Shown: positions 6,040-61,727, counted from the first letter of the stretch. The stretch is DNA of 64,000 nt from an uncultured archaeon (GCA_964512235.1 CAZEGD010000002.1:40768-104767); one strand, 5' to 3'. A program made the numbers and translations. The notes: generated from the sequence alone by a model not told the origin.

Positions 6040-6468
6040 ATGATTTTGTCTGTTAAACAGCGTAAAATTAAGATGCTAGAACGCCTTCTAAAGGGGGATT
6101 TGGAGAAAATAGCAGAAATAGAGCATATTCCAATTGAAGGAACGAAAGAAGATATTCTAAATAAATTAGCCAGTCGCTTGAATCTTCAAAGGACGAGAGA
6201 TTATGTAAAAAAGCTTGTTCTACGTCAAGTATTCGATGTATTCAGCCATGAATTGGTACCAAAGCATAAGGTGCTCTCAGAAAAGGAGAAAGAAATGCTT
6301 CTAGATCAATACAAGATTACAATAGGACAACTACCGAGGATAGCTATTAGAGACTCTGCTGTGCTCTCCATAGATGCAAAACCAGGCGATATCATAGAAA
6401 TAAGTAGGAAAAGCCCTATAGCAGGTGAAATAAAGTATTATAGGGTAGTTATGAGACCAAAGAAGTAA
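6040..6468 (+). CDS. rpoH: DNA-directed RNA polymerase subunit H (Rpb5 homolog) with a ~60-aa N-terminal extension
   Basis: C-terminal 75 aa ([28 protein letters not shown]...[23 protein letters not shown]) match archaeal RpoH; the N-terminal 60-65 aa are extra. Confidence 0.85.
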
Positions 6469-6514
6469 TTTGAGCCTTTTTCTATCAAGTGATTCAATCG
6501 ATTGAATCGCTTTC

Positions 6515-7249
6515 CTATGGACTTTTGTACCTTACCCAACCCTTTCCGTCCCGTCGGAATCTCTCTATCTCGTTGGTCCTCTTCATAGTGTTCGATAGAA
6601 GTCCGCGCAACGCAGAGGTAGTAATGCTTAGTCGTGTAGCCATATCCTTGTAGCTCAGTTCGCCTACAGATCTGACGACTGAAACTAGCTCCTTCATCTT
6701 TGTAGAGAGTGGTATTTGGCTTCTCATTGTCTCTATTTCCCTTAGAATATCTGTCTTTATTGGTTCAGGAGCTTTGACTGCAACCCTCTGGAGCCTATCG
6801 AGAACCGATTGAATCGATTTGAATCGGTTCTGAACGCTTACATCATGTCTTTCCACTGCTTTTCTGATATTTTCAAGATTCTCAATCAATTCTGGTGTCT
6901 GATCGTCAAATTCGGTCTTAAACCAATCTTTTGTTACCATCTGTCTTTCTATACGTGAAAGAGAGCGCTCAACCTCCTTGATACTCTTTCCGGTGTAGCC
7001 AGCAGCGAGTCCAAGTTGAAAAGAATCCTTTTCGAGAGCCGTTACTTCTGGTTTCGGGGTGGGAGCTATTCGATTCTTGGTAGTTCCCCGTCCCGTTACA
7101 ATTAACGCCTCCCGTTCAGGAAGTTCTCTATACTTCTGCCTAGCGATTGAATCGATTGAATCGCTTTCAATCGATGATTCAATCGATTGAATCGATTGAA
7201 TCGCTTTTTTCCGTCCCATTAGCCGCTTCAATCGATTAAAAATACCCAT
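6515..7249 (-). CDS. Hypothetical protein with N-terminal IQSIESSIDS repeats and a C-terminal winged helix
   Basis: Coding sequence contains GATTGAATCG-type DNA repeats; C-terminal H-T-H plus wing (SYKDMATRLSITTSALRGLL...GKGWVRYK). Confidence 0.6.
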   Translation of the reverse strand: MGIFNRLKRLMGRKKAIQSIQSIESSIESDSIDSIARQKYRELPEREALIVTGRGTTKNRIAPTPKPEVTALEKDSFQLGLAAGYTGKSIKEVERSLSRIERQMVTKDWFKTEFDDQTPELIENLENIRKAVERHDVSVQNRFKSIQSVLDRLQRVAVKAPEPIKTDILREIETMRSQIPLSTKMKELVSVVRSVGELSYKDMATRLSITTSALRGLLSNTMKRTNEIERFRRDGKGWVRYKSP

Positions 7250-7293
7250 AAAATCTATTAATTTTTTGGTTTTCCAGCTATTTATACGTTCGC

Positions 7294-7494
7294 CTCACAC
7301 GAACCCTCACGAAATTTCACATAGTCTTAAACTCACAGACTTCTGCGCAATACAATCCTCACAGGCTAATAAGCGGTCTTATGTTCACTTGCCTCTGCAA
7401 GCAGCATATCAGATCCACTGCTCTCTGAACTCTCACTTTCTCTCACTGTTTCCGGACACGCAAAGTGCACCACGCGTCATGGCTACCACTCACC
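7294..7494. repeat. Array of ~10 CTCAC / TTCAC pentamer iterons spaced 10-30 bp apart in non-coding DNA
   Basis: CTCAC at 7294, 7306, 7332, 7358, 7432, 7442, 7489; TTCAC or CCACT at 7316, 7384, 7414. Confidence 0.5.
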
Positions 7495-7580
7495 TCATCT
7501 TTTATATACTATAATATATAGTTATATCATATTATGTTATCACAATTATTTTATAACATATATTATACAGTATATCTTGT
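7495..7580. other. Extreme AT-rich tract (DUE-like) between the iteron array and the dispersed repeats
   Basis: ttttatatactataatatatagttatatcatattatgttatcacaattattttataacatatattatacag. Confidence 0.4.
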
Positions 7581-7586
7581 AGATGG

Positions 7587-7626
7587 TGTAAACTCTCACT
7601 TATGCACCATATGTGAACCGATTGGG
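7587..7626 (+). repeat. Dispersed repeat copy A (TGTAAACTCTCAC-N3-TGCACCA...GATTGG)
   Basis: Shares TGTAAACTCTCACnnnTGCnCCA..TG..GATTGG with copy C at 8333. Confidence 0.5.
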
Positions 7627-7810
7627 TAGCCCATTTGGGAGAGTCTCTTGTCGAAGAGAGCGTAAAGTATATATTGTATATATGCATAATGCACAATATT
7701 CAACATTAGAGAGTGGAAATAGACATTCTTTTATAAGAGTATGTTAAATTATATTATAGAACATATGCTTTTATACGAAAATCGTAGCAAAGCTGTGTAA
7801 AATGTTGGGG

Positions 7811-7860
7811 AACTCTCACAAGTGCACAGTCTATACATAGCACTGGCGCACTTACCTCTT
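7811..7860 (+). repeat. Dispersed repeat copy B (AACTCTCACaagTGCACAG...TGGCGCACTTaCCTCTT)
   Basis: ~50-bp element alignable with copy D; lies at the 3' end of minus-strand gene 7852..8034. Confidence 0.5.
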
Positions 7861-8034
7861 TAAAGCTTTTCTTATCTTCTTTAGACATGCTGGACAGACG
7901 ACTAAAAAGCGGTATTTGCGGTAATCTGATCTTAATCTGTAAGATTTGCCCTTTTTGAGGCAGAAATCACATGTCCCACGTGGATGACCTGCTTCAATCC
8001 TTATCTTTTTAACTCCTGAGACTCCTATGGCCAT
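7852..8034 (-). CDS. Lys/Arg-rich zinc-ribbon protein (60 aa)
   Basis: CDFCLKK...VVCPACLKKIRKALKR; flanked on both sides by repeat copies B and D. Confidence 0.5.
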   Translation of the reverse strand: MAIGVSGVKKIRIEAGHPRGTCDFCLKKGKSYRLRSDYRKYRFLVVCPACLKKIRKALKR

Positions 8035-8060
8035 ATTATTATATTGTTTTCCAGGTGTTT

Positions 8061-8110
8061 AAGTCTCACATCTGCTCAGTCCCTAGGCAGAAGTGGCGCA
8101 CTTCTCTTAG
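8061..8110 (+). repeat. Dispersed repeat copy D (AAGTCTCACatcTGCTCAG...TGGCGCACTTCTCTTAG)
   Basis: Aligns with copy B over ~50 bp; ~25 bp upstream of the start codon of 7852..8034. Confidence 0.5.
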
Positions 8111-8268
8111 TAAAATGGGTTGAAAAATTGTCTCAAAATGAGACAAAAATTATACAACTTTCCATAAATCAATAGTTTTACTCTTTCTAGAAGTCTTTGG
8201 TCAATGGGCTTGATTATTCGTTCTCTCTCTTATGTATAAAAAGTATAAAATAGAGTATATTTCCTCGT

Positions 8269-8934
8269 ATGGTAGGGTCATTCTCTATATATAGAAAGTA
8301 TAAATATATGGAAAAGAATAGAATAATTAGAAAATATGTAAACTCTCACAAATGCGCCAGTGATTGGATGAAGTTAAGAGATGGGATTGAGCTTGCTGAA
8401 AGGTACGGGGCATCAGAAAAAAGGATTGAATTTGTAAGTAATTTATTCACACAGGCTGATATTAGGTACGAATATTTTTCTGAGAGTGCTATAGTTGCCG
8501 GTTTTATAAATAATAATGCCATAGTTGTGAAGGAAGAGATTGCACCTGACTTGGAAAGTATTAAACTTGATAAAAGTGAGTTGAAATTTGTCAGACAACC
8601 ACAAAAAGACGATAAAATCGCATCAATTAGGTTACTTAAAACTCTAGGATTTGAATTCGCTGGCACAGAAATAAGATACAATGGTGGAACAGTAGATGTT
8701 TTGGGTTGTGGTAAAGGCAAAATTATTGCTGTAGAGTGCGGTCCTTGTAGAATTAACAAGGCTGTAGACTATTTAGAGAAGGAAAATACTGAATTGTGGC
8801 TGATTCCTGTTGACTTCTGGCAGAATAAGAAGTTTTTCATAGTTTCACGTGGTCCAAACTGGAAGGATTTTCATGATTTTCACAAAAAATACCAAATTAA
8901 AGTGCTAAAAACTGGAAAGGTGGTGGGAATATGA
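8269..8934 (+). CDS. Hypothetical protein, possibly restriction-endonuclease-like (PD-(D/E)xK) fold; true start may be internal (ATG 8308 or 8367)
   Basis: TVDVLGCGKGKIIAVECG resembles a D...E.K nuclease core; repeat copy C lies inside the 5' end. Confidence 0.35.
   Translation: MVGSFSIYRKYKYMEKNRIIRKYVNSHKCASDWMKLRDGIELAERYGASEKRIEFVSNLFTQADIRYEYFSESAIVAGFINNNAIVVKEEIAPDLESIKLDKSELKFVRQPQKDDKIASIRLLKTLGFEFAGTEIRYNGGTVDVLGCGKGKIIAVECGPCRINKAVDYLEKENTELWLIPVDFWQNKKFFIVSRGPNWKDFHDFHKKYQIKVLKTGKVVGI
8333..8364 (+). repeat. Dispersed repeat copy C (TGTAAACTCTCACaaaTGCGCCAGTGATTGG)
   Basis: See copy A. Confidence 0.5.
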
Positions 8935-9278
8935 AAACGACATTGCACTTACTGGTGGGTAATCATCCAAAGACGGGTAGACTGAAACAAAGAATAACCA
9001 AAATCATCAGGATTTTGAAAGAGAATAAGGGTAAAATCGAGGCAAGCGAGTTGGAAAAGAAGTTAGGGATATCACGAACAGACGATCCAAGTCTCTTCTA
9101 CAAGCCGTTAAAGTCCATGAGGGACTGGGATTTGGTACAGTCGCACCGTACAGTGGAGTTTGATAGCAAAGGTAAGAAGCATTTTAAGACTACATACGAG
9201 CTAACACCAAGCTTCTTTTACCGCTACATAGAAAAAACGCTGTTGGAAAAGGTCAGAACGGAGTTAGAAATGATCTAA
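8931..9278 (+). CDS. Winged-helix DNA-binding protein
   Basis: RILKENKGKIEASELEKKLGISRT ... wing; start overlaps the previous gene by 4 nt. Confidence 0.5.
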   Translation: MKTTLHLLVGNHPKTGRLKQRITKIIRILKENKGKIEASELEKKLGISRTDDPSLFYKPLKSMRDWDLVQSHRTVEFDSKGKKHFKTTYELTPSFFYRYIEKTLLEKVRTELEMI

Positions 9279-9414
9279 TACATCTTACGAAAAGATGAAG
9301 TCCTCTACATGCGTTTTCAGCCATACAAACTATAAAAGGAGTGTAAACTTAAGTTTCTTCTGTATACAAGTTCTTCACTCTCACATCTAGTCAGGATTCG
9401 TACCAATCATTTAA

Positions 9415-9708
9415 TCAAGGAGAACTGACGAGTTGTGGAGTTTTCTCAAGTTTTTTCTTGTAGTTTTCCACACGTTTCTTTAACTCTGGGTCCTTTTCAA
9501 TCAATATGTTATAAAGGATTACAGCATCTTCTGAAGTCTTGAAAAGTTGGCCTTCGACTTCATTTTTAACATTTAGATAAAGATCCACTGCCTCGTCAAA
9601 TGGCAATACCGCGACCAGTTCTGGAGCGCCAGGGTTCTTCTTTCTGGCATACACATGCAACTTATCGCCAACGAACTTAGTCCAAACATCTAGGTTTGGG
9701 TTCTCCAT
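9415..9708 (-). CDS. Hypothetical protein (97 aa)
   Basis: ORF only; repeat copy E (9342..9395) lies just 3' of it. Confidence 0.4.
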   Translation of the reverse strand: MENPNLDVWTKFVGDKLHVYARKKNPGAPELVAVLPFDEAVDLYLNVKNEVEGQLFKTSEDAVILYNILIEKDPELKKRVENYKKKLEKTPQLVSSP

Positions 9709-9768
9709 AAAAACTTCTGCTGATTATGTTAATTTAAGCATTGTAGTGTTGCTTAACCAGTATCGGGT

Positions 9769-10065
9769 TTAGAGATTTTCTCTATGGAGCGATTCTCTGA
9801 CTTTTTCCAAATTTTTTTCAGCGTCTTCGTATGGATTTCTTTTCATAATCTTTACAGCTTCTTTCCCTTTCTGAGTTATGTGCAAATCGCCGTCTGTACC
9901 TATCTCAACATAAGGACCTAAAAGAAGTTCATCTAAAGCCTTTTTCACCCTAGTAGGATTATTCGGAAATTCGTTGTATATCTTATCTCTTGGCATAGAT
10001 TCTTTCTCACATATTAAACGTAGGATATATCCGATGGGGCTATTTGTCATTTTTCCACCAAACAA
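9769..10065 (-). CDS. Winged-helix transcription regulator-like protein
   Basis: PIGYILRLICEKESMPRDKIYNEF...LGPYVEI..DGDLHITQKG pattern. Confidence 0.45.
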   Translation of the reverse strand: MFGGKMTNSPIGYILRLICEKESMPRDKIYNEFPNNPTRVKKALDELLLGPYVEIGTDGDLHITQKGKEAVKIMKRNPYEDAEKNLEKVRESLHRENL

Positions 10066-10115
10066 ATTATAAAAGCGAGAGATTTAAATCTCACCCTACA
10101 TATACTTCAGAACTC

Positions 10116-10607
10116 TCACTTTTCCATCAGAAGCCCGTCTACATAGTCTATTTGGTCTTCCGGTTTTTCGTGTGATCTGACTAATTCTTCATAAATTTGT
10201 CTGACCCGATGCACATTGTCGCTGTCTATCCAGTATATACGTCCTGCGCGCTCTTTTTCAACTTCTCCGTATCCAGAAGTGATAATACCCCGATCTCCTA
10301 AAACATCTAATGATGACGATATTTCATTTCTTTCAATTAAACCCTCGAAATAGTCTACAAGTCTTGTAAATGTAGCGGGTATTTTAGTCATGTTGTATTT
10401 GTAAATCTGTACGGCTATCTTCAGATAATTATCTAGACTTTCCATAGCATTTGGGTCTGCTTTTTTGAATTCTTTGTTCTGATTCTTTAATGGGAGTGGA
10501 ACTTCAGGTATGTCTGACCCAATTAAGAAAAGTTCTTTTGGTTTCGGAAGCAAAATATCACCTAGAATAAATATAGAGTTTAAACTTTTATATTCGGTAT
10601 ACGCCAC
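10116..10607 (-). CDS. Hypothetical protein (163 aa)
   Basis: ORF; its stop codon is embedded in repeat copy F (10111..10130). Confidence 0.45.
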   Translation of the reverse strand: MAYTEYKSLNSIFILGDILLPKPKELFLIGSDIPEVPLPLKNQNKEFKKADPNAMESLDNYLKIAVQIYKYNMTKIPATFTRLVDYFEGLIERNEISSSLDVLGDRGIITSGYGEVEKERAGRIYWIDSDNVHRVRQIYEELVRSHEKPEDQIDYVDGLLMEK

Positions 10608-10623
10608 ATTGGCTTATTCTAGT

Positions 10624-10920
10624 CTATCCTGCATACACTTCTTTACTCTCACTCTTCACTTCTTTTGGCAGGAAGAAAAGGCCACCATGCAATAGAATTG
10701 CATAAAGGATTATCCTCATGAAGTCTGGAGATTCCATCTTTTTTATCTTTTTTAGGTAGGTTGATACTGTATTCCTGGATATGCCAAGCATTTCCGCTAT
10801 TTCTAGGTTGTTGTAGCCTCTTGCGTTTAATATTATTATCTCTTTTAGCATTATTGGTTTGAAGCCGTATCTCTTTGCTAGTGTGTTGAATAGCTGGTTT
10901 AGGTATCTTTCTATCTTCAT
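10624..10920 (-). CDS. HTH_10 (bacterio-opsin-activator-type) helix-turn-helix protein with a C-terminal TM segment
   Basis: GYNNLEIAEMLGISRNTVSTYLKKI HTH; hydrophobic segment IILYAILLHGGLFFL. Confidence 0.5.
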   Translation of the reverse strand: MKIERYLNQLFNTLAKRYGFKPIMLKEIIILNARGYNNLEIAEMLGISRNTVSTYLKKIKKMESPDFMRIILYAILLHGGLFFLPKEVKSESKEVYAG

Positions 10921-10964
10921 GTTAAATATTGTGCATTTTGCATATATTTAAACTATTTACATAA

Positions 10965-11177
10965 TTAAAAAATAAATACATGAAGGAAAAGAAAAATAAA
11001 GATCAGTCCTATCAAAATAAGTTCAATCAATACTAGTTTCGTTAATTCTTGTATTTCCATAGTAATCTGGGGAATACCAAAAATTGCTCCGATGATTAAG
11101 AAAAATACAGTTAAGGCTCCGAAGAAAATCGCAATTTTCTGTTCTGTAGTATATTTCTCTTTTTTATTAATTTTCAT
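10965..11177 (-). CDS. Small membrane protein (70 aa)
   Basis: Two hydrophobic helices; start overlaps the upstream gene. Confidence 0.4.
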   Translation of the reverse strand: MKINKKEKYTTEQKIAIFFGALTVFFLIIGAIFGIPQITMEIQELTKLVLIELILIGLIFIFLFLHVFIF

Positions 11178-11380
11178 CGACTCAACCTCGATATTATGCC
11201 AATAATTATCGAAATTATCATCGCTACTATTACGAAGAAGAATAGTAATGAATAACCTGGTGCCAGTTCTGTTAATATTGGACCTAAAGCATAGGTAATA
11301 ATGATAATTATAAAAATTGTAAGTAGAGCTTCAAAAACAAATGAAATTATATTTTGTCCTTTATTCTTCATATTTACCAT
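11174..11380 (-). CDS. Small membrane protein (68 aa)
   Basis: Two hydrophobic helices; 4-nt overlap with the downstream gene. Confidence 0.4.
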   Translation of the reverse strand: MVNMKNKGQNIISFVFEALLTIFIIIIITYALGPILTELAPGYSLLFFFVIVAMIISIIIGIISRLSR

Positions 11381-11464
11381 CTTACTTCACAAAAATAAAT
11401 AGTTTGATAATTCCTCAATCTTTATTAATCTTCTGATTAAATTCTGTAATTAGATAGATTTTTC

Positions 11465-12433
11465 TTAACTAGAAAATGTTACATCAAAAACTTTCACTTC
11501 TATTAGAGGATTTGCAGCTGCAGCATATTCAAGATAAGTATCTTTCTTACCAACAACAATTATACCTCTAACTCCTTTACCCTCTTTCTCGGCCATATGT
11601 TTTTTTATCCAACCCATATATCTCGATATCTGGTCTATTATTGAAGAACCAGCTTTTGATTTTTTCAATTCAACAACAACATAATCTGCATTACTACATA
11701 ATAAATCGAGTCTTCCAACATCGGTAACTTTCTGCCTAGCGACTACTTTAAGATGTGGGTCTAACTTATGGATGTTTTGCTCTATGATGGTCTCTAAATT
11801 CCTTTCAAGGATTTCTGTGTAGCCTATCTGCCTACTAACTTTTTCTTTTATTATTTCTTTTTTATCGTCTTCTTTGATATCCGACTTTATCTCAACCCAC
11901 CTTCCCTCTTCGAGGTAATTCAAGAATTCGTCTATCGACCCAAATTTTTCTACCAAAGGCGTTAATCTATCTCCGCTTATTTGCATAAAGCCTTGTGGAG
12001 TATAGTTAGGTGCATAACCTACAACTTTATTGAAATCTGAAACAGGAACCGATAGTTCTCTTAGATTATCAAGAAGGTACATATATTCCCAAGTTTGTCC
12101 AGAGGAGTCCGTACTCCATAAAAATTTAGCTAATTCAAGATTATGTATTTTGTGTACGACGGTAGCAATATATTCGTAATTCCCCTTTCTATAAATCAGA
12201 ATTTTATCATTGACTTCTAGGTTGCGCCAATTTCGTATGTTTCCACTTCCAGGTGTGGCTCCCCATGCCCTTATTTTTCTATCGCGGAAATAATCTTCCA
12301 CATCTTTCAAATCATTCTCTGATAGAAATTGTTTTATTTTATTATCTAAAGTGAATCCTTCTTCTATTGTATCAATATAATGTCTGTAAGCTTCGTCTCT
12401 ACTTGCTGTAAAAACGAATAATTTGGCGGTCAT
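11465..12433 (-). CDS. Nuclease with a NucS/EndoMS-type C-terminal RecB-like PD-(D/E)xK domain fused to a ~200-aa N-terminal PUA/EVE-like beta-barrel region
   Basis: C-terminal GRLDLLCSNADYVVVELKKSKAGSSIIDQISRYMGWIKKHM...GVRGIIVVG closely parallels the NucS C-terminal domain (IDLL..D..VVIELKRG.A...VGQLLRY.GWV...VRGILVA); the N-terminus is not NucS-like. Confidence 0.6.
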   Translation of the reverse strand: MTAKLFVFTASRDEAYRHYIDTIEEGFTLDNKIKQFLSENDLKDVEDYFRDRKIRAWGATPGSGNIRNWRNLEVNDKILIYRKGNYEYIATVVHKIHNLELAKFLWSTDSSGQTWEYMYLLDNLRELSVPVSDFNKVVGYAPNYTPQGFMQISGDRLTPLVEKFGSIDEFLNYLEEGRWVEIKSDIKEDDKKEIIKEKVSRQIGYTEILERNLETIIEQNIHKLDPHLKVVARQKVTDVGRLDLLCSNADYVVVELKKSKAGSSIIDQISRYMGWIKKHMAEKEGKGVRGIIVVGKKDTYLEYAAAANPLIEVKVFDVTFSS

Positions 12434-12458: not shown

Positions 12459-12492
12459 TCAATTTTATATTATATTCCTTTTTCTAGAGCAC
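12459..12492 (-). promoter_or_regulatory. Promoter module copy 1 (TGCTCTAGAAAAAGGAATATAA + TATA box), ~35 nt upstream of the 11465..12433 start
   Basis: Minus-strand reading tgctctagaaaaaggaatataatataaaatt; near-identical to the copy at 14623..14652. Confidence 0.55.
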
Positions 12493-12507
12493 ACTTCCGG
12501 CGAGAAT

Positions 12508-13920
12508 CTAAACTCTATAACCTCTTCCTTCTTTTACCATCTTCGTCTTCGGTGACAATCTCCTAAACATGCCCGGATGCTCAGTATGCACAGGAAATAG
12601 CATCTTCGGCTTGATCCTCTCTATCAATTCTTTCAAATCCGTACCTGACATGTGCCCGCTACAGTGGCACTGCACCTGACGCAGATCAAAATGCTCCATC
12701 CAGTTCTTCATCCTCCCAGCAGACATCTCCATCTCCTCGTTGAACGGCTCGGAAAGAGAGTGTATATACAGGCTATCTTTCGGCTTCAAATCCACGAGCA
12801 TATTGAAGTACCAGAAATTCAGCACGGTCATGTAATCATTCGGCTTCTTCTGCATGTCTTCTGCTGTGATAATGTTCGGATAATCCATCCTTTCCCTTAT
12901 GTACTTGTCCGAATAGTCCTTGTCATCATAAGTGCCTGTCATCCGCTTCGGCTTAAGCAGATAGATACCTTTACCAGTACTATCTGGCACATTCAGCGTC
13001 TTATCCATATGATAGCGCTCCAGAAAGCACGCGTGCTTGAAGCTGATCACAAGCTTCTTCTCTACCTCTTGTGAAATGCGATAGAAAGTGCGGAATCGGT
13101 CCACATCCTTGAAATTGAAGTCTACTATGGACAGTCCCCTGTTCTTCAGTATCTCCCTCTTCGAGTCAGCATACACCTTCGCCTCTGATTCATCGGTCTT
13201 TTTGATGTCAATTCTGGTGCCTTCAGTTATCATCGCTATCGGTTTCACTTCCTCCGCTCTCTTCATAAAGTCCATAGTCATCTCCGAATGAGCACCATGC
13301 ATCCGCATATCTCCAGTATAAACGACTGGACCTTTGCTTGTATGTATGATGAAACCGTACGCGCCAGGGACGCTGTGATCCACATGAATGGGTTCTATCT
13401 CCAATGACCCAATCTTGAACTTCTTGCCTGTCCTAAATGTATGAAAGGTGCGCTCTTCCGGAGGCTTCCTGTAGTCCGTGCGAAATAAAGGCCGCTTCTT
13501 GAAGTTCAGCACTTCATTCTCTATGCCCCTCTGGCTCTGCTCTTCCACTGCCTGCAATATGCGATGGCATGTCTCTCCGCAATATATCGGAATGTCCTTG
13601 TGCAAAAACGAAATATAGTTTGCATGGTCTGCATGCGCATGCGAGAGAACGACTCCGTCTATCTCCGGATCTTTCGGCTTACGTCCATAATGTTTGAGCA
13701 AATCATCGCGGTAGACACCTTCTATGTCTGGTATCAGTCCCATTGCAAGGAAGTCGCCTATGCCGTTTGCTGTTCTTGGCTTCAGGAACTCTTCGAAGAA
13801 TTGTGCACGCTTGCCAAAGCTCATTCCGAAATCTAAAAATATTTTGGTACCTTTATCTTCCAACAGTATCTTGTTACCGCCAATTTCCTTCACTCCGCCA
13901 TAGAAAGTTAGTTTGACCAT
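12508..13920 (-). CDS. rnj: Archaeal RNase J-like beta-CASP ribonuclease (metallo-beta-lactamase fold)
   Basis: HAHADH motif plus downstream D/H beta-lactamase motifs and a beta-CASP C-terminus; start chosen at MVKLTFYGG, while the ORF-track start is 13959. Confidence 0.8.
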   Translation of the reverse strand: MVKLTFYGGVKEIGGNKILLEDKGTKIFLDFGMSFGKRAQFFEEFLKPRTANGIGDFLAMGLIPDIEGVYRDDLLKHYGRKPKDPEIDGVVLSHAHADHANYISFLHKDIPIYCGETCHRILQAVEEQSQRGIENEVLNFKKRPLFRTDYRKPPEERTFHTFRTGKKFKIGSLEIEPIHVDHSVPGAYGFIIHTSKGPVVYTGDMRMHGAHSEMTMDFMKRAEEVKPIAMITEGTRIDIKKTDESEAKVYADSKREILKNRGLSIVDFNFKDVDRFRTFYRISQEVEKKLVISFKHACFLERYHMDKTLNVPDSTGKGIYLLKPKRMTGTYDDKDYSDKYIRERMDYPNIITAEDMQKKPNDYMTVLNFWYFNMLVDLKPKDSLYIHSLSEPFNEEMEMSAGRMKNWMEHFDLRQVQCHCSGHMSGTDLKELIERIKPKMLFPVHTEHPGMFRRLSPKTKMVKEGRGYRV

Positions 13921-13965: not shown

Positions 13966-14589
13966 TCAACCATAGAAAGGATATCTTCTATGCATCATCC
14001 GCCTTAGATCAGCGTCAAGCTTTGCACTTAACTCACGTTGCTGCTTAGAGATAGATTCCAAGCCGCTAACAACATATGGGCCCTCTAGAATTGGTGGTTC
14101 TATTGCCGAAAGTTGTTGTGGCAATCGTCTGGTCGCTTTTAGTGTAGATTGCATAACCTTTTTCATAATAGCATTCACAGCTTGATTGGGTGTTTTTAAT
14201 CCTTGCTCAACTTCCGATTTCATCTCCATCGTAAACTCCATAACTTCTTTCATGTCAACATTTCTGAACCCATAAGGGATTTCTGCCCCGCGTCTAAACC
14301 CTTTTCCCACAGCTTGTGGCATCCCGGGCACCCTTGGGATTCTAATCCTTGGTGCTGATCTTTCAAAGTCAAAATCTTTTATCTCAATTCCTATAACAGT
14401 TGGTTTTGTTTTGTAGATTGTATCTTTCTTCAGTAGCCATGCAGCATCTGGTGAGTAGATTAAAGCATCGTAGAATCCGCCTGGGCTTCTGTAAGTTATA
14501 GCGCCCCATTTAAAATCTCTACCATGCGGTTTTTTGTTATACTTCTTCAGTATATCATCCCAAATTTCTTCTCCCGGCAACACGCCCAT
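13966..14589 (-). CDS. Hypothetical protein (207 aa), probably co-transcribed with RNase J
   Basis: ORF preceded by promoter module copy 2; no recognisable domain. Confidence 0.5.
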   Translation of the reverse strand: MGVLPGEEIWDDILKKYNKKPHGRDFKWGAITYRSPGGFYDALIYSPDAAWLLKKDTIYKTKPTVIGIEIKDFDFERSAPRIRIPRVPGMPQAVGKGFRRGAEIPYGFRNVDMKEVMEFTMEMKSEVEQGLKTPNQAVNAIMKKVMQSTLKATRRLPQQLSAIEPPILEGPYVVSGLESISKQQRELSAKLDADLRRMMHRRYPFYG

Positions 14590-14622: not shown

Positions 14623-14652
14623 TAATTTTTATATTCCTTTTTCTAGAGCAGA
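14623..14652 (-). promoter_or_regulatory. Promoter module copy 2 (TGCTCTAGAAAAAGGAATATAAAAATT), ~35 nt upstream of the 13966..14589 start
   Basis: 21-nt exact identity (tatattcctttttctagagca) with copy 1, plus flanking similarity. Confidence 0.55.
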
Positions 14653-14720
14653 CTCCCACCAAGACTCTGTCGTTCTTGAGTAAAGATAAGAATTTATTTC
14701 TAATCGTCCAAGCATAGTCT

Positions 14721-20957: not shown

Positions 20958-21389
20958 TTACCTTCTGCGCCTTCTTTTCGGCCGTTTGGCTTTTTTCATC
21001 GGCTTCTTCATTTTCGCTTTTCCCATCAAAGGCAGTTTGAAAGCTGCAAGTACTATGTAACCGACTATGGACCAAATGAAGACGTCTGCTACGAAGTTCT
21101 GCCATATCACGGACTTGACTGGGAATTGGACTACGGCTTGCCTGAGCCAAGGCAGTACATATCCCCAATAGACTGCACCGACCCACGGATGACTGATGAA
21201 TTGGACATCGGGCAATTCACCCACTATGTTCGAATTCACCCACATGCCGCTTACAGTCGTCACCACCAGCCCTATCAGGATCGAGAAGGCTATTCTTCTG
21301 TCAATCAACTTTGATATCATAGAAATAATATCGGAATTTCGGCTTAAAAGCGAGTAATCATTATACGAACTACTTATTTTCTTGCGCAC
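20958..21389 (-). CDS. Membrane protein with an Arg/Lys-rich C-terminal tail
   Basis: 3 TM; tail KKPMKKAKRPKRRRRR. Confidence 0.45.
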   Translation of the reverse strand: MRKKISSSYNDYSLLSRNSDIISMISKLIDRRIAFSILIGLVVTTVSGMWVNSNIVGELPDVQFISHPWVGAVYWGYVLPWLRQAVVQFPVKSVIWQNFVADVFIWSIVGYIVLAAFKLPLMGKAKMKKPMKKAKRPKRRRRR

Positions 21390-21400
21390 AATAATTATCT

Positions 21401-22249
21401 ATGACTTATGAAGAGAAGCCAGAAGATGATGGTATGGTAGAAGCGATGAAAAAGTTAGATACGGAGCTGAAGCTGCGCGGGTTTTCACCGCAGACAGCGA
21501 AGATGTACAACTTCTACAATGAAAAGTTTTTGAAATTTGCAAACAAGCAACCCATGCAAATAACGGAAGATGATGTGAAGTCGTTCATTGCAGACAGGCT
21601 ATCGAATGGCATATCCCCAAAGTCAGTCGTGCTCATGAGGTCTGCGCTGAAGTTCTACTACGATGAGGTATTGAACAGGGGTGTTGTGAACATAAAGACA
21701 CCGAAAGTATCGCGCAAACTGCCCATAGTGCTGACGCATGAAGAAGTGAAACTTTTGATAGATTCTGTGAAAAGAAAGAAGCACAAGCTCATGGTCATGG
21801 TGCTGTATTCTTCCGGCCTGCGCGTGAGCGAGCTTGTGAACTTGAAGATTGGAGATTTGGAGATTGACCAAAAGATTGGTTGGGTGCGCAGCGGCAAGGG
21901 TGCAAAGGATAGGATGTTCATAATTTCCGAGAAGATTGTCAACAGGTTGAAGAGTTATACAAAGGGTAGAGGCAAGGATGAATATGTCTTTGCCGGTCAT
22001 AATGGTAGACTGACTACGCGCAGCGTGCAGAAAGCAATAGCAAGCACGGCAAAGCGCGCGGGTATAGACAAAAGAGTGACACCGCATGTACTTAGGCATA
22101 CCTTTGCCACGCATATGCTAGAGTCTGGTGTGGATTTGAGAAAGATACAGATGCTTCTGGGGCATTCGCAGCTGAGTACGACTCAACTGTACTTGAGCGT
22201 ATCGAACAAGGAATTGAAAATGGTAAAGAGTCCTCTGGATGAATTATAG
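21401..22249 (+). CDS. xerA: Tyrosine recombinase XerA (XerC/D family)
   Basis: R..HxxR..Y catalytic set: LRVSEL, HVLRHTFATHML, GHSQLSTTQLYLSV. Confidence 0.88.
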   Translation: MTYEEKPEDDGMVEAMKKLDTELKLRGFSPQTAKMYNFYNEKFLKFANKQPMQITEDDVKSFIADRLSNGISPKSVVLMRSALKFYYDEVLNRGVVNIKTPKVSRKLPIVLTHEEVKLLIDSVKRKKHKLMVMVLYSSGLRVSELVNLKIGDLEIDQKIGWVRSGKGAKDRMFIISEKIVNRLKSYTKGRGKDEYVFAGHNGRLTTRSVQKAIASTAKRAGIDKRVTPHVLRHTFATHMLESGVDLRKIQMLLGHSQLSTTQLYLSVSNKELKMVKSPLDEL

Positions 22250-29582: not shown

Positions 29583-29709
29583 GCGGGGGTCGCCTAGTCT
29601 GGTCAATGGCGCGAGGCTTAAGTTTGACTACTTAAGATCTGATAAAATATGATGCAATAAGAAACCTCGTGGCTTAGTGCCTTCGTGGGTTCAAATCCCA
29701 CTCCCCGCA
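29583..29709 (+). tRNA. tRNA-Leu (anticodon UAA) with a ~41-nt intron after position 37 (approx. 29623..29663)
   Basis: Acceptor stem GCGGGGG/TCCCCGC; long variable arm GGCttagtGCC; anticodon loop CTTAAG|intron|A; intron contains ACTTAAG complementary to the loop (bulge-helix-bulge context). Confidence 0.85.
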
Positions 29710-59457: not shown

Positions 59458-60453
59458 ATGAAAATTCTAGTAACAGGCGGAGCCGGATTTATGGGGTCTT
59501 GGCTAGTGGACGAACTCATCAGCCGCGGCCACAAAGTCGTTAGCGTTGACGATCTAAGCGGCGGATTCATGCGTAACGTAAGCAAAAAATGCAAATTCAT
59601 CAAAATGGATCTACGCAACACCAAGAAAGTTTTCAAAGTCACAAAAGGAGTTGATATAATATTTCACCTTGCTGCATATGCAGCAGAAGGCCAGTCTGTG
59701 TTCTCACCGATAGAAATAAACGACATAAACATAAAGCCGATGAACAATCTACTCGTAGCGGCCGTGAACAATGGTATCAAGAAGTTCATTTTCACTTCTT
59801 CCATGGCAGTCTATGGTGACCAGAAGCCACCATTCAATGAAAAGATGGCTAGAATGCCGGAAGACCCATACGGCTGCGGTAAATCATACTGTGAGCGTAT
59901 GCTTGAAATTTTTGCAGAGACATATGGATTTAATTATACTATCGTAAGGCCACACAATGTGTACGGACCAAGGCAGAATATATCAGATCCTTACAGAAAT
60001 GTGCTAGGCATATGGATAAATAGGATCATGCGAAGAAAGCCACCACTCATCTATGGCGACGGAAAACAAACTAGAGCATTTTCTTACATAGAAGATGTCA
60101 CACCACCGCTTGCAAATGTTGGGTTCTTTAGGAAGGCAAACGGCCAGATAATAAACTTGGGCAGCGATGAAGTGATGACTATAAATAAAGCATGCAGAGT
60201 CGTACTGGATAAAATGGACAGTAAATTAAAGCCAAAGCATGTAGAGTCAAGACCATGTGAAGTGAAGCACGCACATTGCACAATCAAAAAATCTCAAAAG
60301 ATTTTGGGGTACAGGACAAAGCATAAACTGAAAGATGGGATAAAGAAAATGGTAGAATGGGCTAGAAAGACCGGCCCGCAGAAGCCAACCTACAGGTTGC
60401 CATTGGAGATAACAAAAAGAGCGCCAAAAGTATGGTATAAAAAAATGATTTAA
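59458..60453 (+). CDS. NAD-dependent nucleotide-sugar epimerase/dehydratase (extended SDR)
   Basis: VTGGAGFMGSWLV; catalytic YGCGK; 331 aa. Confidence 0.8.
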   Translation: MKILVTGGAGFMGSWLVDELISRGHKVVSVDDLSGGFMRNVSKKCKFIKMDLRNTKKVFKVTKGVDIIFHLAAYAAEGQSVFSPIEINDINIKPMNNLLVAAVNNGIKKFIFTSSMAVYGDQKPPFNEKMARMPEDPYGCGKSYCERMLEIFAETYGFNYTIVRPHNVYGPRQNISDPYRNVLGIWINRIMRRKPPLIYGDGKQTRAFSYIEDVTPPLANVGFFRKANGQIINLGSDEVMTINKACRVVLDKMDSKLKPKHVESRPCEVKHAHCTIKKSQKILGYRTKHKLKDGIKKMVEWARKTGPQKPTYRLPLEITKRAPKVWYKKMI

Positions 60454-61727
60454 TTTGTTTCTTTGACTACACCGACAGCTATTGTAACGCCACTATCTCT
60501 TATGAGTATTCTTCCCAATTGTGGGGTTTCAGTCTGCTTTTCTATCACAAAAGGCTCCGTAGCGACAAACTTTACAGTACCAGCATCGTCCATAGAAAGC
60601 ACTTTTACTTTTCCTCCGGAAACCTTTCCACTTCTAGGATCCATCTTGTTGATGATTTTTTCAGCCTTACATTGCACATTAGCTGTACCACACCTTATTA
60701 TATAATCTCTACCTTCTACGACTTCACCGTCATCTTCGAGTATGAATATCTCTGCACTGAACTCTTTGGAAACATTCGGCACATCTTTACCACTACTGAA
60801 TACATAACCGCGTTTGATTTCTGATATGCCGATGACTTTGATTCCAATATTCTCACCTGCTACAGCCCGCACCTTTTCTTTATTCCACATTTGTATCGAT
60901 TCAACAGTACCACGCTCCCCAGAAGGGCTAACAACTACTTCGTCGCCAACTTCTACTTTACCCAGTTCTACCCTTCCGACTATTACTCTCTCTCCTCCAA
61001 CCTCGTAAGAGTCTTGAACAGGTATCCTTAAAGGACTGTCTGCATAATTCTTTGGCTCAATTGTAAAATTGTCTAGGGCTTCAACTAATGTCGGCCCGTC
61101 ATACCATTCCATTCTTTCAGACTTCTTTAAGACATTGTCACCTTCCATGGCCGATACTGGAACGATTTGTACATTCTCTGTAACGTATCCCATAGATTCG
61201 AGCATATCCTTTATATCGGACGAAATTATGTAAAATATTTCCTTGTCATAATCTACAGTATCCATCTTGTTGACGGCAACGACAAGCCTGTCTATACCCA
61301 TCTCTTTTGCCAGCCATGCATGTTCTTTACTCTGGCTTTGCACACCTTCGCTAAGCTTTGCGGATACTACGAACATAGAGATTTCTCCATAAGACGCGCC
61401 GCTGATCATATTCTTTATGAACTCTTTATGCCCGGGGCAATCTATGAAGTTGTACAAATACTTTTCACTTTTAAACGGGACCTGTACAGTATCTATGGTC
61501 ATCGCCTCCTCCCGCTCTTCTTGAAAGGTATCAAGGATGAATGCATATTCAAACTTTTCTTTATTGAGTTTTTTGAGCACAGATTTTATTTCTTCCAACC
61601 TGTCAGGTTTCAGCTGTCCAGAGTCGTATATAATCCTACCTATGAGCGTAGATTTTCCATGGTCTATGTGACCTATTGCAACAATGTTTACGTTTGGTAG
61701 TTTATTTTTTTCCATCACAACCACCAA
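60450..61727 (-). CDS. cysN: Sulfate adenylyltransferase subunit 1-like GTPase (CysN-like EF-1alpha/EF-Tu paralog)
   Basis: G1 GHIDHGKSTLIGRII, G3 DCPGH, G4 VVAVNKMDTVDYDKEIF (closer to the CysN consensus than to EF-1alpha); sits in an operon with cysD. Confidence 0.7.
   Translation of the reverse strand: MVVVMEKNKLPNVNIVAIGHIDHGKSTLIGRIIYDSGQLKPDRLEEIKSVLKKLNKEKFEYAFILDTFQEEREEAMTIDTVQVPFKSEKYLYNFIDCPGHKEFIKNMISGASYGEISMFVVSAKLSEGVQSQSKEHAWLAKEMGIDRLVVAVNKMDTVDYDKEIFYIISSDIKDMLESMGYVTENVQIVPVSAMEGDNVLKKSERMEWYDGPTLVEALDNFTIEPKNYADSPLRIPVQDSYEVGGERVIVGRVELGKVEVGDEVVVSPSGERGTVESIQMWNKEKVRAVAGENIGIKVIGISEIKRGYVFSSGKDVPNVSKEFSAEIFILEDDGEVVEGRDYIIRCGTANVQCKAEKIINKMDPRSGKVSGGKVKVLSMDDAGTVKFVATEPFVIEKQTETPQLGRILIRDSGVTIAVGVVKETN

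Follow-up and report, generated by a model that had tools for sequence, protein, structure and literature searches.

Repeated two-box sites in a variable chromosomal locus of an uncultured archaeon: probable protein-binding sites that may double as cassette junctions

The attC sites of integrons are single-strand hairpins with R''-L''/L'-R' pairing and RYYYAAC...GTTRRRY ends, and these criteria for integrons, as well as the integrons found in archaea, have been described by Ghaly et al. (Ghaly et al., 2022; PMC9668308). A 64,000-nucleotide stretch of chromosome from an uncultured archaeon (GCA_964512235.1 CAZEGD010000002.1:40768-104767), hereafter the window, was the part of the source genome analysed here, and it contains a locus with a family of short repeated sites built from two elements, box 1 and box 2. 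Like an integron or a cluster of attC sites lacking integron integrases (CALIN), the locus consists of short chromosomal genes, mostly co-oriented and each with a copy of the repeated site 3' of it; its gene content varies among relatives with breakpoints at the sites, and a Xer-type recombinase gene lies within it. Unlike those of an integron, the sites share no common hairpin and have no GTTRRRY at their 3' ends, and hence are not attC; the recombinase, scoring 188 bits on the integron-integrase model TIGR02249 (cut-off 265), is of the ordinary XerA type, lacks the IntI-specific domain, stands 11 kb away from the final site and has no attI-like or box site adjoining it; and the array of sites abuts a winged-helix gene with phased sites of its own. 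The locus works like an integron but is not one. It is proposed here, with somewhat less than even confidence, that the box 1/box 2 sites are protein-binding sites which double as recombination junctions of gene cassettes. This reading is favoured because it is the simplest account that takes in the conserved address, the array, the junctions and the link to recombinases together.

Other described systems share single features with the locus. The dif site has two 11-nt inverted arms around a 6-nt spacer and occurs in single copy (PMC2958812). The locus is like Xer/dif systems and integrative mobile elements exploiting Xer (IMEX) in having a XerA gene and, in two related loci (L140 and L145), a dif-like site beside the box sites; unlike dif, the box sites are asymmetric, have a 14-nt spacer and occur in many copies, and no dif-type inverted repeat overlapping them was found in the window. 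The pdif modules of Acinetobacter plasmids are discrete gene modules bounded by repeated sites, as are the gene modules of this locus. The sfx sites of the Rci shufflon form inverted pairs within one coding region, with one arm of the site conserved and the other not; asymmetric sites and segments in both orientations (L142 compared with the window) are found here as well, but the sites are mostly direct repeats between separate genes. The iteron arrays of plasmid origins have an adjacent autoregulated rep gene and a register of ~22 bp. With iterons and with the RTP-Ter system of Bacillus subtilis the locus shares direct, phased, one-stranded repeats, an AT-rich stretch and a winged-helix gene, and, as with iterons, its array reaches into the promoter of the adjacent gene; unlike in iterons, its protein has no relation to Rep, Orc or RTP that could be detected, the register is ~12.4 bp, and copies also stand between cassettes. 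A CRISPR array had already been ruled out by a first-pass annotation, made from the sequence of the window, on account of irregular spacing, and rightly so: start-to-start distances are 220, 250, 280, 1035, 735 and 533 nt, only 9-20 nt are common to the copies, and genes lie between them. The motif and the two protein families linked to it, described below, appear to be new, as no prior description was found in family databases or by literature search, the search for the motif returning only primer sequences.

The exact 8-mer ACTCTCAC at the core of the repeat occurs seven times in the window (7429, 7592, 7812, 8342, 9377, 10112 and 10645), always on the + strand and within 3.2 kb (7429-10652), and a search of both strands found no further copy in the remaining ~60 kb. 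Shuffled sequences contained 1.9 ± 1.3 copies, with none of 100 shuffles reaching seven, and a chance origin of the repeats is excluded. The loose pattern AACTCTCACNNNTGC, with two mismatches allowed, is not enriched by count (8 against 4.6 expected, and 12 of 100 shuffles with at least 8); since the exact core is enriched and the loose pattern is not, the signal consists of the exact core and its clustering. The first-pass annotation had described a clustered, same-orientation, cis-acting family near winged-helix genes, which proved right. The seven copies that it listed are all present, displaced by at most 4 nt (its 8337 is the TGTA just before box 1 at 8341). Its list was incomplete, missing the copies at 7428, 7438, 7302 and 10086 and the pentamers at 7293, 7331 and 7357.

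Related loci, all of them metagenomic contigs and many of them short, were found through two proteins encoded beside the sites, and the sites in them were located with patterns derived from the window. A PD-(D/E)xK nuclease-like protein (8368-8934) led to L124, L125, L139 and thirteen more distant loci, L126-L129 and L130-L138 (71% identical to the window protein in L124 and 59% in L139). A winged helix-turn-helix (wHTH) protein, named CC-wHTH for its coiled coil and winged helix, led to L140-L145 (40-72% identical). Syntenic copies of the sites are present in L124, L139 and L140-L145. The window and L142-L145 have both anchors of the locus, which are a block running from rpo/S10 through MetAP and an RpoH-like gene to the CC-wHTH gene on one side and Memo-GluRS on the other. 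The distance from anchor to anchor is 15.4 kb in the window and 7.4, 5.4, 8.5 and 5.1 kb in L142, L143, L144 and L145, respectively, and is filled with mostly different small genes, encoding HTH proteins, PIN and HEPN/NTase toxin modules and often a XerA-type integrase. Of the two anchors, L141 has that of CC-wHTH alone, and the corresponding upstream stretch there encodes GmrSD, a BglII-type nuclease and a PAPS-reductase-domain protein. Across the five two-anchor loci, box 1 sites (at most one mismatch) number 29 in 41.9 kb of variable region and 7 in 100 kb of flanks, that is 0.69 against 0.07 per kb or ~10-fold, and 27 of the 29 are on the strand opposite the CC-wHTH gene. The motif is thus not a compositional feature spread at similar density, as the first-pass annotation had allowed it might be. 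Its suggestion of an integrated element fared less well, because the locus is a conserved chromosomal position, from the rpo/S10-RpoH-like block to Memo-GluRS, at which only the gene content varies.

The repeat unit consists of box 1 (AACTCTCAC), usually followed on its 3' side by T-rich bases, and box 2 (AARTGCGCCA). A half site is box 1 with box 2 directly after it; a full site is box 1, TGCNCAG, 14 nt and TGGCGCAYTT, the last being box 2 inverted. Using a regular expression with a gap of 0-30 nt, 11 full-type pairs were found in 267 kb (window and related loci), with a gap of exactly 14 nt in nine, 15 nt in one and 28 nt in one. All nine pairs with the 14-nt gap lie within the variable region on the box 1 strand, and there are at most two full sites per locus. 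Two sub-types were recognised by the first-pass annotation and are borne out: sites A and C share TGTAAACTCTCAC-N3-TGCRCCA...GATTGG, and sites B and D end in TGGCGCACTT and flank the 60-aa Zn-ribbon open reading frame (ORF) at 7852-8034. Half site A has syntenic copies in L124 (at 1039), L141 (at 7678) and L143 (at 8560), and full site D is missing from L143. From the end of half site C it is 8 nt to the start codon of the nuclease-like gene downstream, and the site is kept 5' of the nuclease-like homologues in L124 (2059) and L139 (186). The copies at 9376, 10111 and 10644 have ~30 nt in common (YCCTRCATAYACTTC-NNN-ACTCTCAC). As had also been noticed, copies overlap the 3' ends of minus-strand genes, namely 7852-8034 (site B), 10116-10607 (copy at 10111) and 10624-10920 (copy at 10644); the last bases of full site B contain the stop codon of the Zn-ribbon gene, and that of 10116-10607 falls in box 1 of the 10111 copy.

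Sites that follow the stop codons of many minus-strand genes with constant polarity would also be expected of an element acting in RNA, such as a 3'-untranslated-region motif, a processing site or a small RNA. When six copies were folded as single-strand DNA, their structures differed (z-scores from -2.1 to +0.8) and two were essentially unfolded. Rfam returned only tRNAs from the whole window at the gathering threshold, and nothing relevant from 6400-12000 even at E<=5. As there is no common single-strand fold and no Rfam match, the copies were treated as duplex-DNA sites. Copies are moreover found in promoters, in untranscribed-looking AT-rich DNA and upstream of opposite-strand genes, and an RNA-level element is considered highly improbable. 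The idea of a transcription start element was dropped, since the distance from the TATA box to the motif 5' of each + copy was inconsistent by eye. A scan of viral contigs with GNNAACTCTCACNNNTGCNC gave 120+ single-copy matches in unrelated contigs. A pattern with 14 specified bases is too short for that collection, and these matches amount to chance and carry no information.

The coincidence of cassette gain and loss with the sites becomes visible by comparing relatives, and not from the window alone. Outside the CC-wHTH block, BLAST homology between the window and L140 consists of one segment, 7813-8103, which begins within the first bases of site B and stops at the final base of site D; past site D, the DNA of L140 is unrelated to that of the window. 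Between its homologue of a 115-aa HTH protein (wHTH115) and its LuxR-type gene, L143 has one site only, a hybrid whose left half is like the window copy at 10111 and whose right half is like that at 10644. At this point the window has 9385-10110, with two genes, and 10120-10643, with one, each flanked by direct copies. The slot between the B-type and D-type sites is occupied by three unrelated genes across relatives, which are the Zn-ribbon gene (window, L140), a 123-aa gene (L124) and wHTH115 (L142); in L143, the Zn-ribbon gene is accompanied by the B-type site only. Stop codons of unrelated slot genes lie within box 2, as TAA in the window and L140 and as TAG in L124. In L142, a conserved promoter block together with wHTH115 is inverted relative to the window. 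The same polarity, in which the gene is followed by its stop codon, by box 2 where present and distally by GTGAGAGTT, fits the window cassettes, L124, L140, L142 and L143. It extends to L126 and L130-L134, in which the site stands 150-240 nt past the stop codon of the nuclease-like gene. In the window, minus-strand orientation is common to the Zn-ribbon gene, the 97-aa and 98-aa genes, the 163-aa gene and the LuxR-type HTH gene, which are interspersed with sites.

The box 1 array lies directly upstream of the CC-wHTH gene, on whose strand box 1 reads GTGAG. In the lineage, 7 of 7 loci have three to seven GTGAG each in the 300 nt upstream of this gene, giving 35 GTGAG and no CTCAC in 7 x 300 nt, with 0.8 expected and a background of 0.39 per kb per strand. 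Adjacent copies are spaced by 12, 25-27, 37-38, 47-48, 59-61 and 74-75 nt, corresponding to a register of ~12.4 bp. Box 2 elements are scattered between the array copies, and farther out come an AT-rich stretch and then a half site. This AT-rich stretch is the sole one listed by a scan of the window between 5 and 23 kb, and an equivalent stretch is found after box 1 in L124, L126, L130, L131, L133, L134 and L142. The geometry of a phased, one-stranded array points to cooperative protein binding. The CC-wHTH gene is the sole gene constantly linked to the array, the nuclease-like gene being missing from L140-L145. In the Woesearchaeota loci L127 and L138, box 1 is downstream of the CC-wHTH homologue, so that the linkage is kept and the promoter geometry is not. 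Linkage and geometry together make CC-wHTH the candidate binder of box 1. Of the origins offered by the first-pass annotation, the operator set or iterons find support here, as a phased one-stranded array stands upstream of the 6515-7249 gene in every relative examined.

The modelled CC-wHTH protein has an N-terminal amphipathic helix, a disordered linker of IQS/IES repeats, a coiled coil and a C-terminal MarR/ArsR-like wHTH, and the fold matches of the model are MarR/ArsR regulators. Searches of Pfam, NCBIfam, PHROG and PDB sequences gave no match beyond generic wHTH. With ~100 clusters at 50% identity (E<=1e-10) among 1.84 billion representatives, the family is, judged by its homologues, small and lineage-restricted; 145 homologues were collected, on contigs of up to 880 kb. 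Its start is conserved as MG(I/L)F(D/N)RLK(R/Q)L.. (MGIFNRLKRL... in the window protein). The N-terminal helix presumably resembles the membrane-targeting helices of PspA/ESCRT-III-like and SepF-type proteins, and if this likeness holds, a membrane-tethered DNA-binding protein would be implied. Repeats of GATTGAATCG / GATTCAATCG at 6480-6514, 6802-6826 and 7144-7213 are perfect palindromes; most of them encode the IQS/IES linker, in which AIQS/ALQS/AIES is kept at the protein level in distant homologues, and one copy (6487-6511) lies beyond the ORF, between it and the RpoH-like gene.

The proximal GTGAG is found ~7-15 nt upstream of the CC-wHTH TATA box in a similar way across the five loci read, and this placement is what a pure operator set would predict, in which the boxes would serve only to bind winged-helix regulators encoded in the locus, and through these the small genes would be co-regulated. 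The breakpoints would then arise from promoter or terminator modules that move with their genes, or from homologous recombination promoted by the repeats. The same arrangement precedes the 9769-10065 gene (upstream of it are GTGAGAGTT, 16 nt, GTGAGATTT, 11 nt and TTTTATAA), half site C separates the TATA box of the nuclease-like gene from its start codon, a position kept in L124 and L139, and HTH genes are abundant in the locus. However, the orientation of the sites is set by the locus and not by the nearest gene, many copies are at 3' ends or in convergent gaps (9376; site B), and the left copy in L126 faces the end of a convergent gene. A fixed promoter position is not seen in L126 and L127, and in L127 and L138 box 1 is on the downstream side of the CC-wHTH homologue. 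The stop codons of unrelated genes embedded in box 2 and the hybrid site of L143 are left unexplained. This operator account, including its explanation of the breakpoints, is considered rather unlikely.

The sites are also associated with a recombinase module. In 14 loci (L125-L138), the nuclease-like gene overlaps the end of a XerA-like tyrosine-recombinase gene; this recombinase is missing from the window and L124, and L139 is too short to tell. With the archaeal XerA model these recombinases reach 141-165 bits, short of the cut-off (220), and an HTH gene is often found upstream of the pair. The 14 loci are from Aenigmatarchaeota, Woesearchaeota and metagenomes. GTGAGAGTT occurs 150-240 nt after the gene pair in 6 of the 14 loci, with the same polarity. 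The two genes are translationally coupled, e.g. at 9353-10546 in L126 and 1036-2210 in L130. In L126 and L130, a module of HTH, recombinase and nuclease genes (~2.1 kb) lies between inverted copies of box 1, each preceding 160-190 bp of AT-rich DNA, with an inverted repeat of 22 nt (82% complementary) in L130. Inverted copies with AT-rich arms around a module would suit remnants of a transposon or miniature inverted-repeat transposable element (MITE) with terminal inverted repeats containing AACTCTCAC, which the first-pass annotation had named as a possible origin. Such pairs are confined to these two loci; in L132 the copies around the same module are direct, and all 10 copies in the window have one orientation, with no inverted partner in 64 kb. 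Target-site duplications were not seen, and sequence beyond the motif is conserved between L133 and L134. A MITE origin is therefore judged very unlikely.

The nuclease-like protein belongs to no Pfam or NCBIfam family. Its model has a predicted local distance difference test (pLDDT) score of 91 and, in Foldseek, its matches are weak but agree in pointing to PD-(D/E)xK folds (NucS, Hjc and AF1548). Neither the protein nor its alignment matched any viral contig, which leaves a virus reading unsupported. A start of its ORF at 8269, as in database protein P0001, was rejected because a 2-nt indel between the window and L124 breaks the frame; the stretch with half site C is thus non-coding.

A dif-like site, AGTTCGTATAA-N6-TTATACGAACT, is perfect in L145 (9441-9468) and has one mismatch in L140 (814-841). 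It lies just past the box sites and near the CC-wHTH gene, ~270-550 bp past the nearest box 1 in L145 and ~13 nt past the D-type full site in L140, and in both loci every box 1 copy points to it. The half site TTATACGAACT is also present 25-30 nt upstream of the XerA-type gene in the window (21361-21371) and in L145 (5930-5940). The 64-kb window yielded half sites only (7771-7782 and 21361-21371) and no full dif-like site.

Box 1 copies that point at a dif-like site beyond them in L140 and L145 raise the possibility of a chromosome-maintenance element, either a replication origin made of iterons and an unwinding element, a centromere-like site or membrane anchor, or a polar fork barrier or terminus organiser beside dif, comparable to RTP-Ter or Tus-Ter. 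This would agree with direct phased repeats beside a stretch of at least 85% A+T, with a linkage between sites and protein gene that survives a change of orientation (L127 and L138 compared with the window), with XerA lying inside the variable region of the window, L144 and L145, and with the amphipathic helix at the start of CC-wHTH, given its likeness to membrane-targeting helices. On the other hand, no similarity of CC-wHTH to Orc1/Cdc6, Rep, ParB, Tus or RTP was found beyond generic wHTH, there is no orc1/cdc6 among the annotated ORFs of the window, the window is without a full dif-like site, and copies between cassettes and around recombinase modules are not expected of an origin. The maintenance element is thus held to be improbable; if true, it would be a first archaeal candidate for a polar terminus or anchoring system.

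In the favoured reading, of binding sites that double as cassette junctions, CC-wHTH would bind box 1, regulate its own promoter and build a nucleoprotein platform beside the AT-rich stretch, at the fixed edge of a hot-spot. The dispersed half and full sites would be attachment or crossover points for the insertion, deletion and inversion of cassettes, catalysed by a XerA-type tyrosine recombinase via site-specific recombination. This recombinase could be the chromosomal XerA (21401-22249) acting in trans or, in other lineages, the box 1-flanked recombinase and PD-(D/E)xK pair. Repeated insertions at one site would yield direct, same-orientation copies such as those of the window.

Several points weigh against this proposal. 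The breakpoints, and with them the putative recombination at the sites, are read from alignments of sequences no more than 70-76% identical, and homologous recombination between repeated regulatory sites could have produced them instead of a site-specific process. The sites are without the dyad symmetry and 6-8 bp spacer typical of tyrosine-recombinase cores. The predicted binding of box 1 by CC-wHTH is based on linkage and geometry. The motif copies end at 10.7 kb, whereas the variable region reaches 22.7 kb. There is no recombinase beside the sites in the window and L124, and none in the variable region of L142 and L143. Some gene replacements, e.g. the nuclease-like gene against a 150-aa gene in L143, have no site at one edge.

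A more far-reaching reading is that of a gene-capture platform that evolved independently in DPANN archaea, is attC-less and uses Xer-type recombinases, and would thus be a second kind of integron. Its hot-spot would be anchored by a possibly membrane-tethered CC-wHTH on the phased array, its cassettes would carry a 3' box 1/box 2 site, and a mobile recombinase and nuclease pair would carry the same sites; taken together, this is thought to be on the unlikely side. DPANN archaea are host-dependent and have very small genomes, and little is understood of the ways in which they gain and shuffle accessory genes. The window probably comes from such an archaeon, an Aenigmarchaeota-like one, as the homologues of its locus proteins are found in metagenome-assembled genomes of Aenigmarchaeota and Woesearchaeota. 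The locus offers a precisely defined cis-element, open to sequence searches, at a fixed address in the chromosome, together with candidate trans-acting proteins, namely the uncharacterised CC-wHTH family and a recombinase and PD-(D/E)xK pair without family assignment. If the sites are true recombination junctions, such a cassette system would be invisible to attC-based finders, and gene-capture platforms of archaea would be under-counted. The features of the locus are listed in Table 1.

Table 1. Positions of the box sites and neighbouring features in the window
Feature	Position	Strand	Description
CC-wHTH gene	6515..7249	-	ORF, 244 aa
Box 1 array	7290..7472	+	directly upstream of the CC-wHTH gene
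Bare CTCAC pentamers	7293, 7331, 7357	+	
Box 1-like copy	7302	+	AACCCTCAC
Box 1	7428, 7591, 7811, 8341, 10111	+	AACTCTCAC
Box 1-like copy	7438	+	TTCTCTCAC
Box 2-like element	7462-7472		AAAGTGCACCA; within the box 1 array
AT-rich stretch	7494..7584		at least 85% A+T; separates the array from half site A; TATAC..GTATA-type palindromes
Half site A	7591..7609	+	AACTCTCAC-TTA-TGCACCA
Full site B	7811..7853	+	box 1, AAG, TGCACAG, 14 nt, TGGCGCACTT
Zn-ribbon cassette gene	7852..8034	-	60 aa; also in L140, L143
Box 1 variant	8061	+	AAGTCTCAC
Full site D	8061..8103	+	AAGTCTCAC, ATC, TGCTCAG, 14 nt, TGGCGCACTT
Non-coding block	8104..8340		kept in L124, L142 (inverted), L143
Half site C	8341..8360	+	AACTCTCAC-AAA-TGCGCCAG
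Two-gene operon	8368..9278	+	PD-(D/E)xK nuclease-like (8368-8934) and 115-aa HTH protein (8931-9278; wHTH115)
Putative junction site	9355..9384	+	ends in CACTCTCAC
Box 1 variant	9376-9384	+	cACTCTCAC
Cassette of two small genes	9415..10065	-	97 aa (9415-9708) and 98 aa (9769-10065); missing from L143
Box 1-like copy	10086	+	AAATCTCAC
Putative junction site	10086..10124	+	AAATCTCAC, then CCTACATATACTTCAGAACTCTCACTTTTC
Cassette gene	10116..10607	-	163 aa, no known family; missing from L143
LuxR-type HTH gene	10624-10920	-	copy at 10644 in its last codons
Putative junction site	10628..10657	+	CCTGCATACACTTCTTTACTCTCACTCTTC; within the 3' end of the LuxR-type HTH gene
Box 1 variant	10644-10652	+	tACTCTCAC
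XerA gene	21401-22249	+	scores 263 bits with the XerA model (cut-off 220); at the distal end of the variable region

The window is a piece of archaeal chromosome that encodes EF-1alpha, S10, Ogg, MetAP and the RpoH-like protein (6040-6468), followed beyond the small genes by XerA, Memo and GluRS at 21.4-25.3 kb and then by FtsZ, Nop5, Hel308 and PolB. When the cassette proteins were compared with PHROG and Pfam, only generic HTH matches were obtained. The non-coding block 8104-8340 has 76-82% DNA identity in BLAST between the window and L124, L142 and L143. TATA-like boxes are found on either strand of the block, and the minus strand also has a hairpin with a T-run at 8128-8146; the block may specify a small minus-strand transcript of ~100-140 nt.

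Two further repeats were noticed around the cassette genes. A 38-nt inverted repeat (84% complementary) is formed by 7669-7706 and 10919-10956; a second copy of the promoter and 5' region of the LuxR-type HTH gene (core ATGCAnAATGCACAATATT), lacking the gene itself, stands in the intergenic DNA between sites A and B, and L140 and L143 have similar sequence. A 40-nt direct repeat (85% identical) at 12470-12509 and 14629-14668 lies 36-39 nt upstream of the start codons of a NucS-like gene (11465-12433) and a 207-aa ORF (13966-14589), both on the minus strand, and the pair flanks a metallo-beta-lactamase RNase gene. This repeat may represent a promoter common to both genes or another type of junction.

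The 6040-6468 protein is a homologue of RpoH (Rpb5 C-terminal domain) with an N-terminal extension of ~64 residues, encoded away from rpoB/rpoA, and the RpoH-like gene adjoins the CC-wHTH gene in L140 and L143 too. tRNA genes are present in the window, one of them with an intron. The stretch 29583-29709, with an Rfam tRNA match of 40 bits across 127 nt that was uncalled by ARAGORN, is probably an intron-containing archaeal tRNA. Besides the truncated EF-1alpha at 21-1124, the window encodes a second EF-1alpha-like GTPase of 425 aa (60450-61727).

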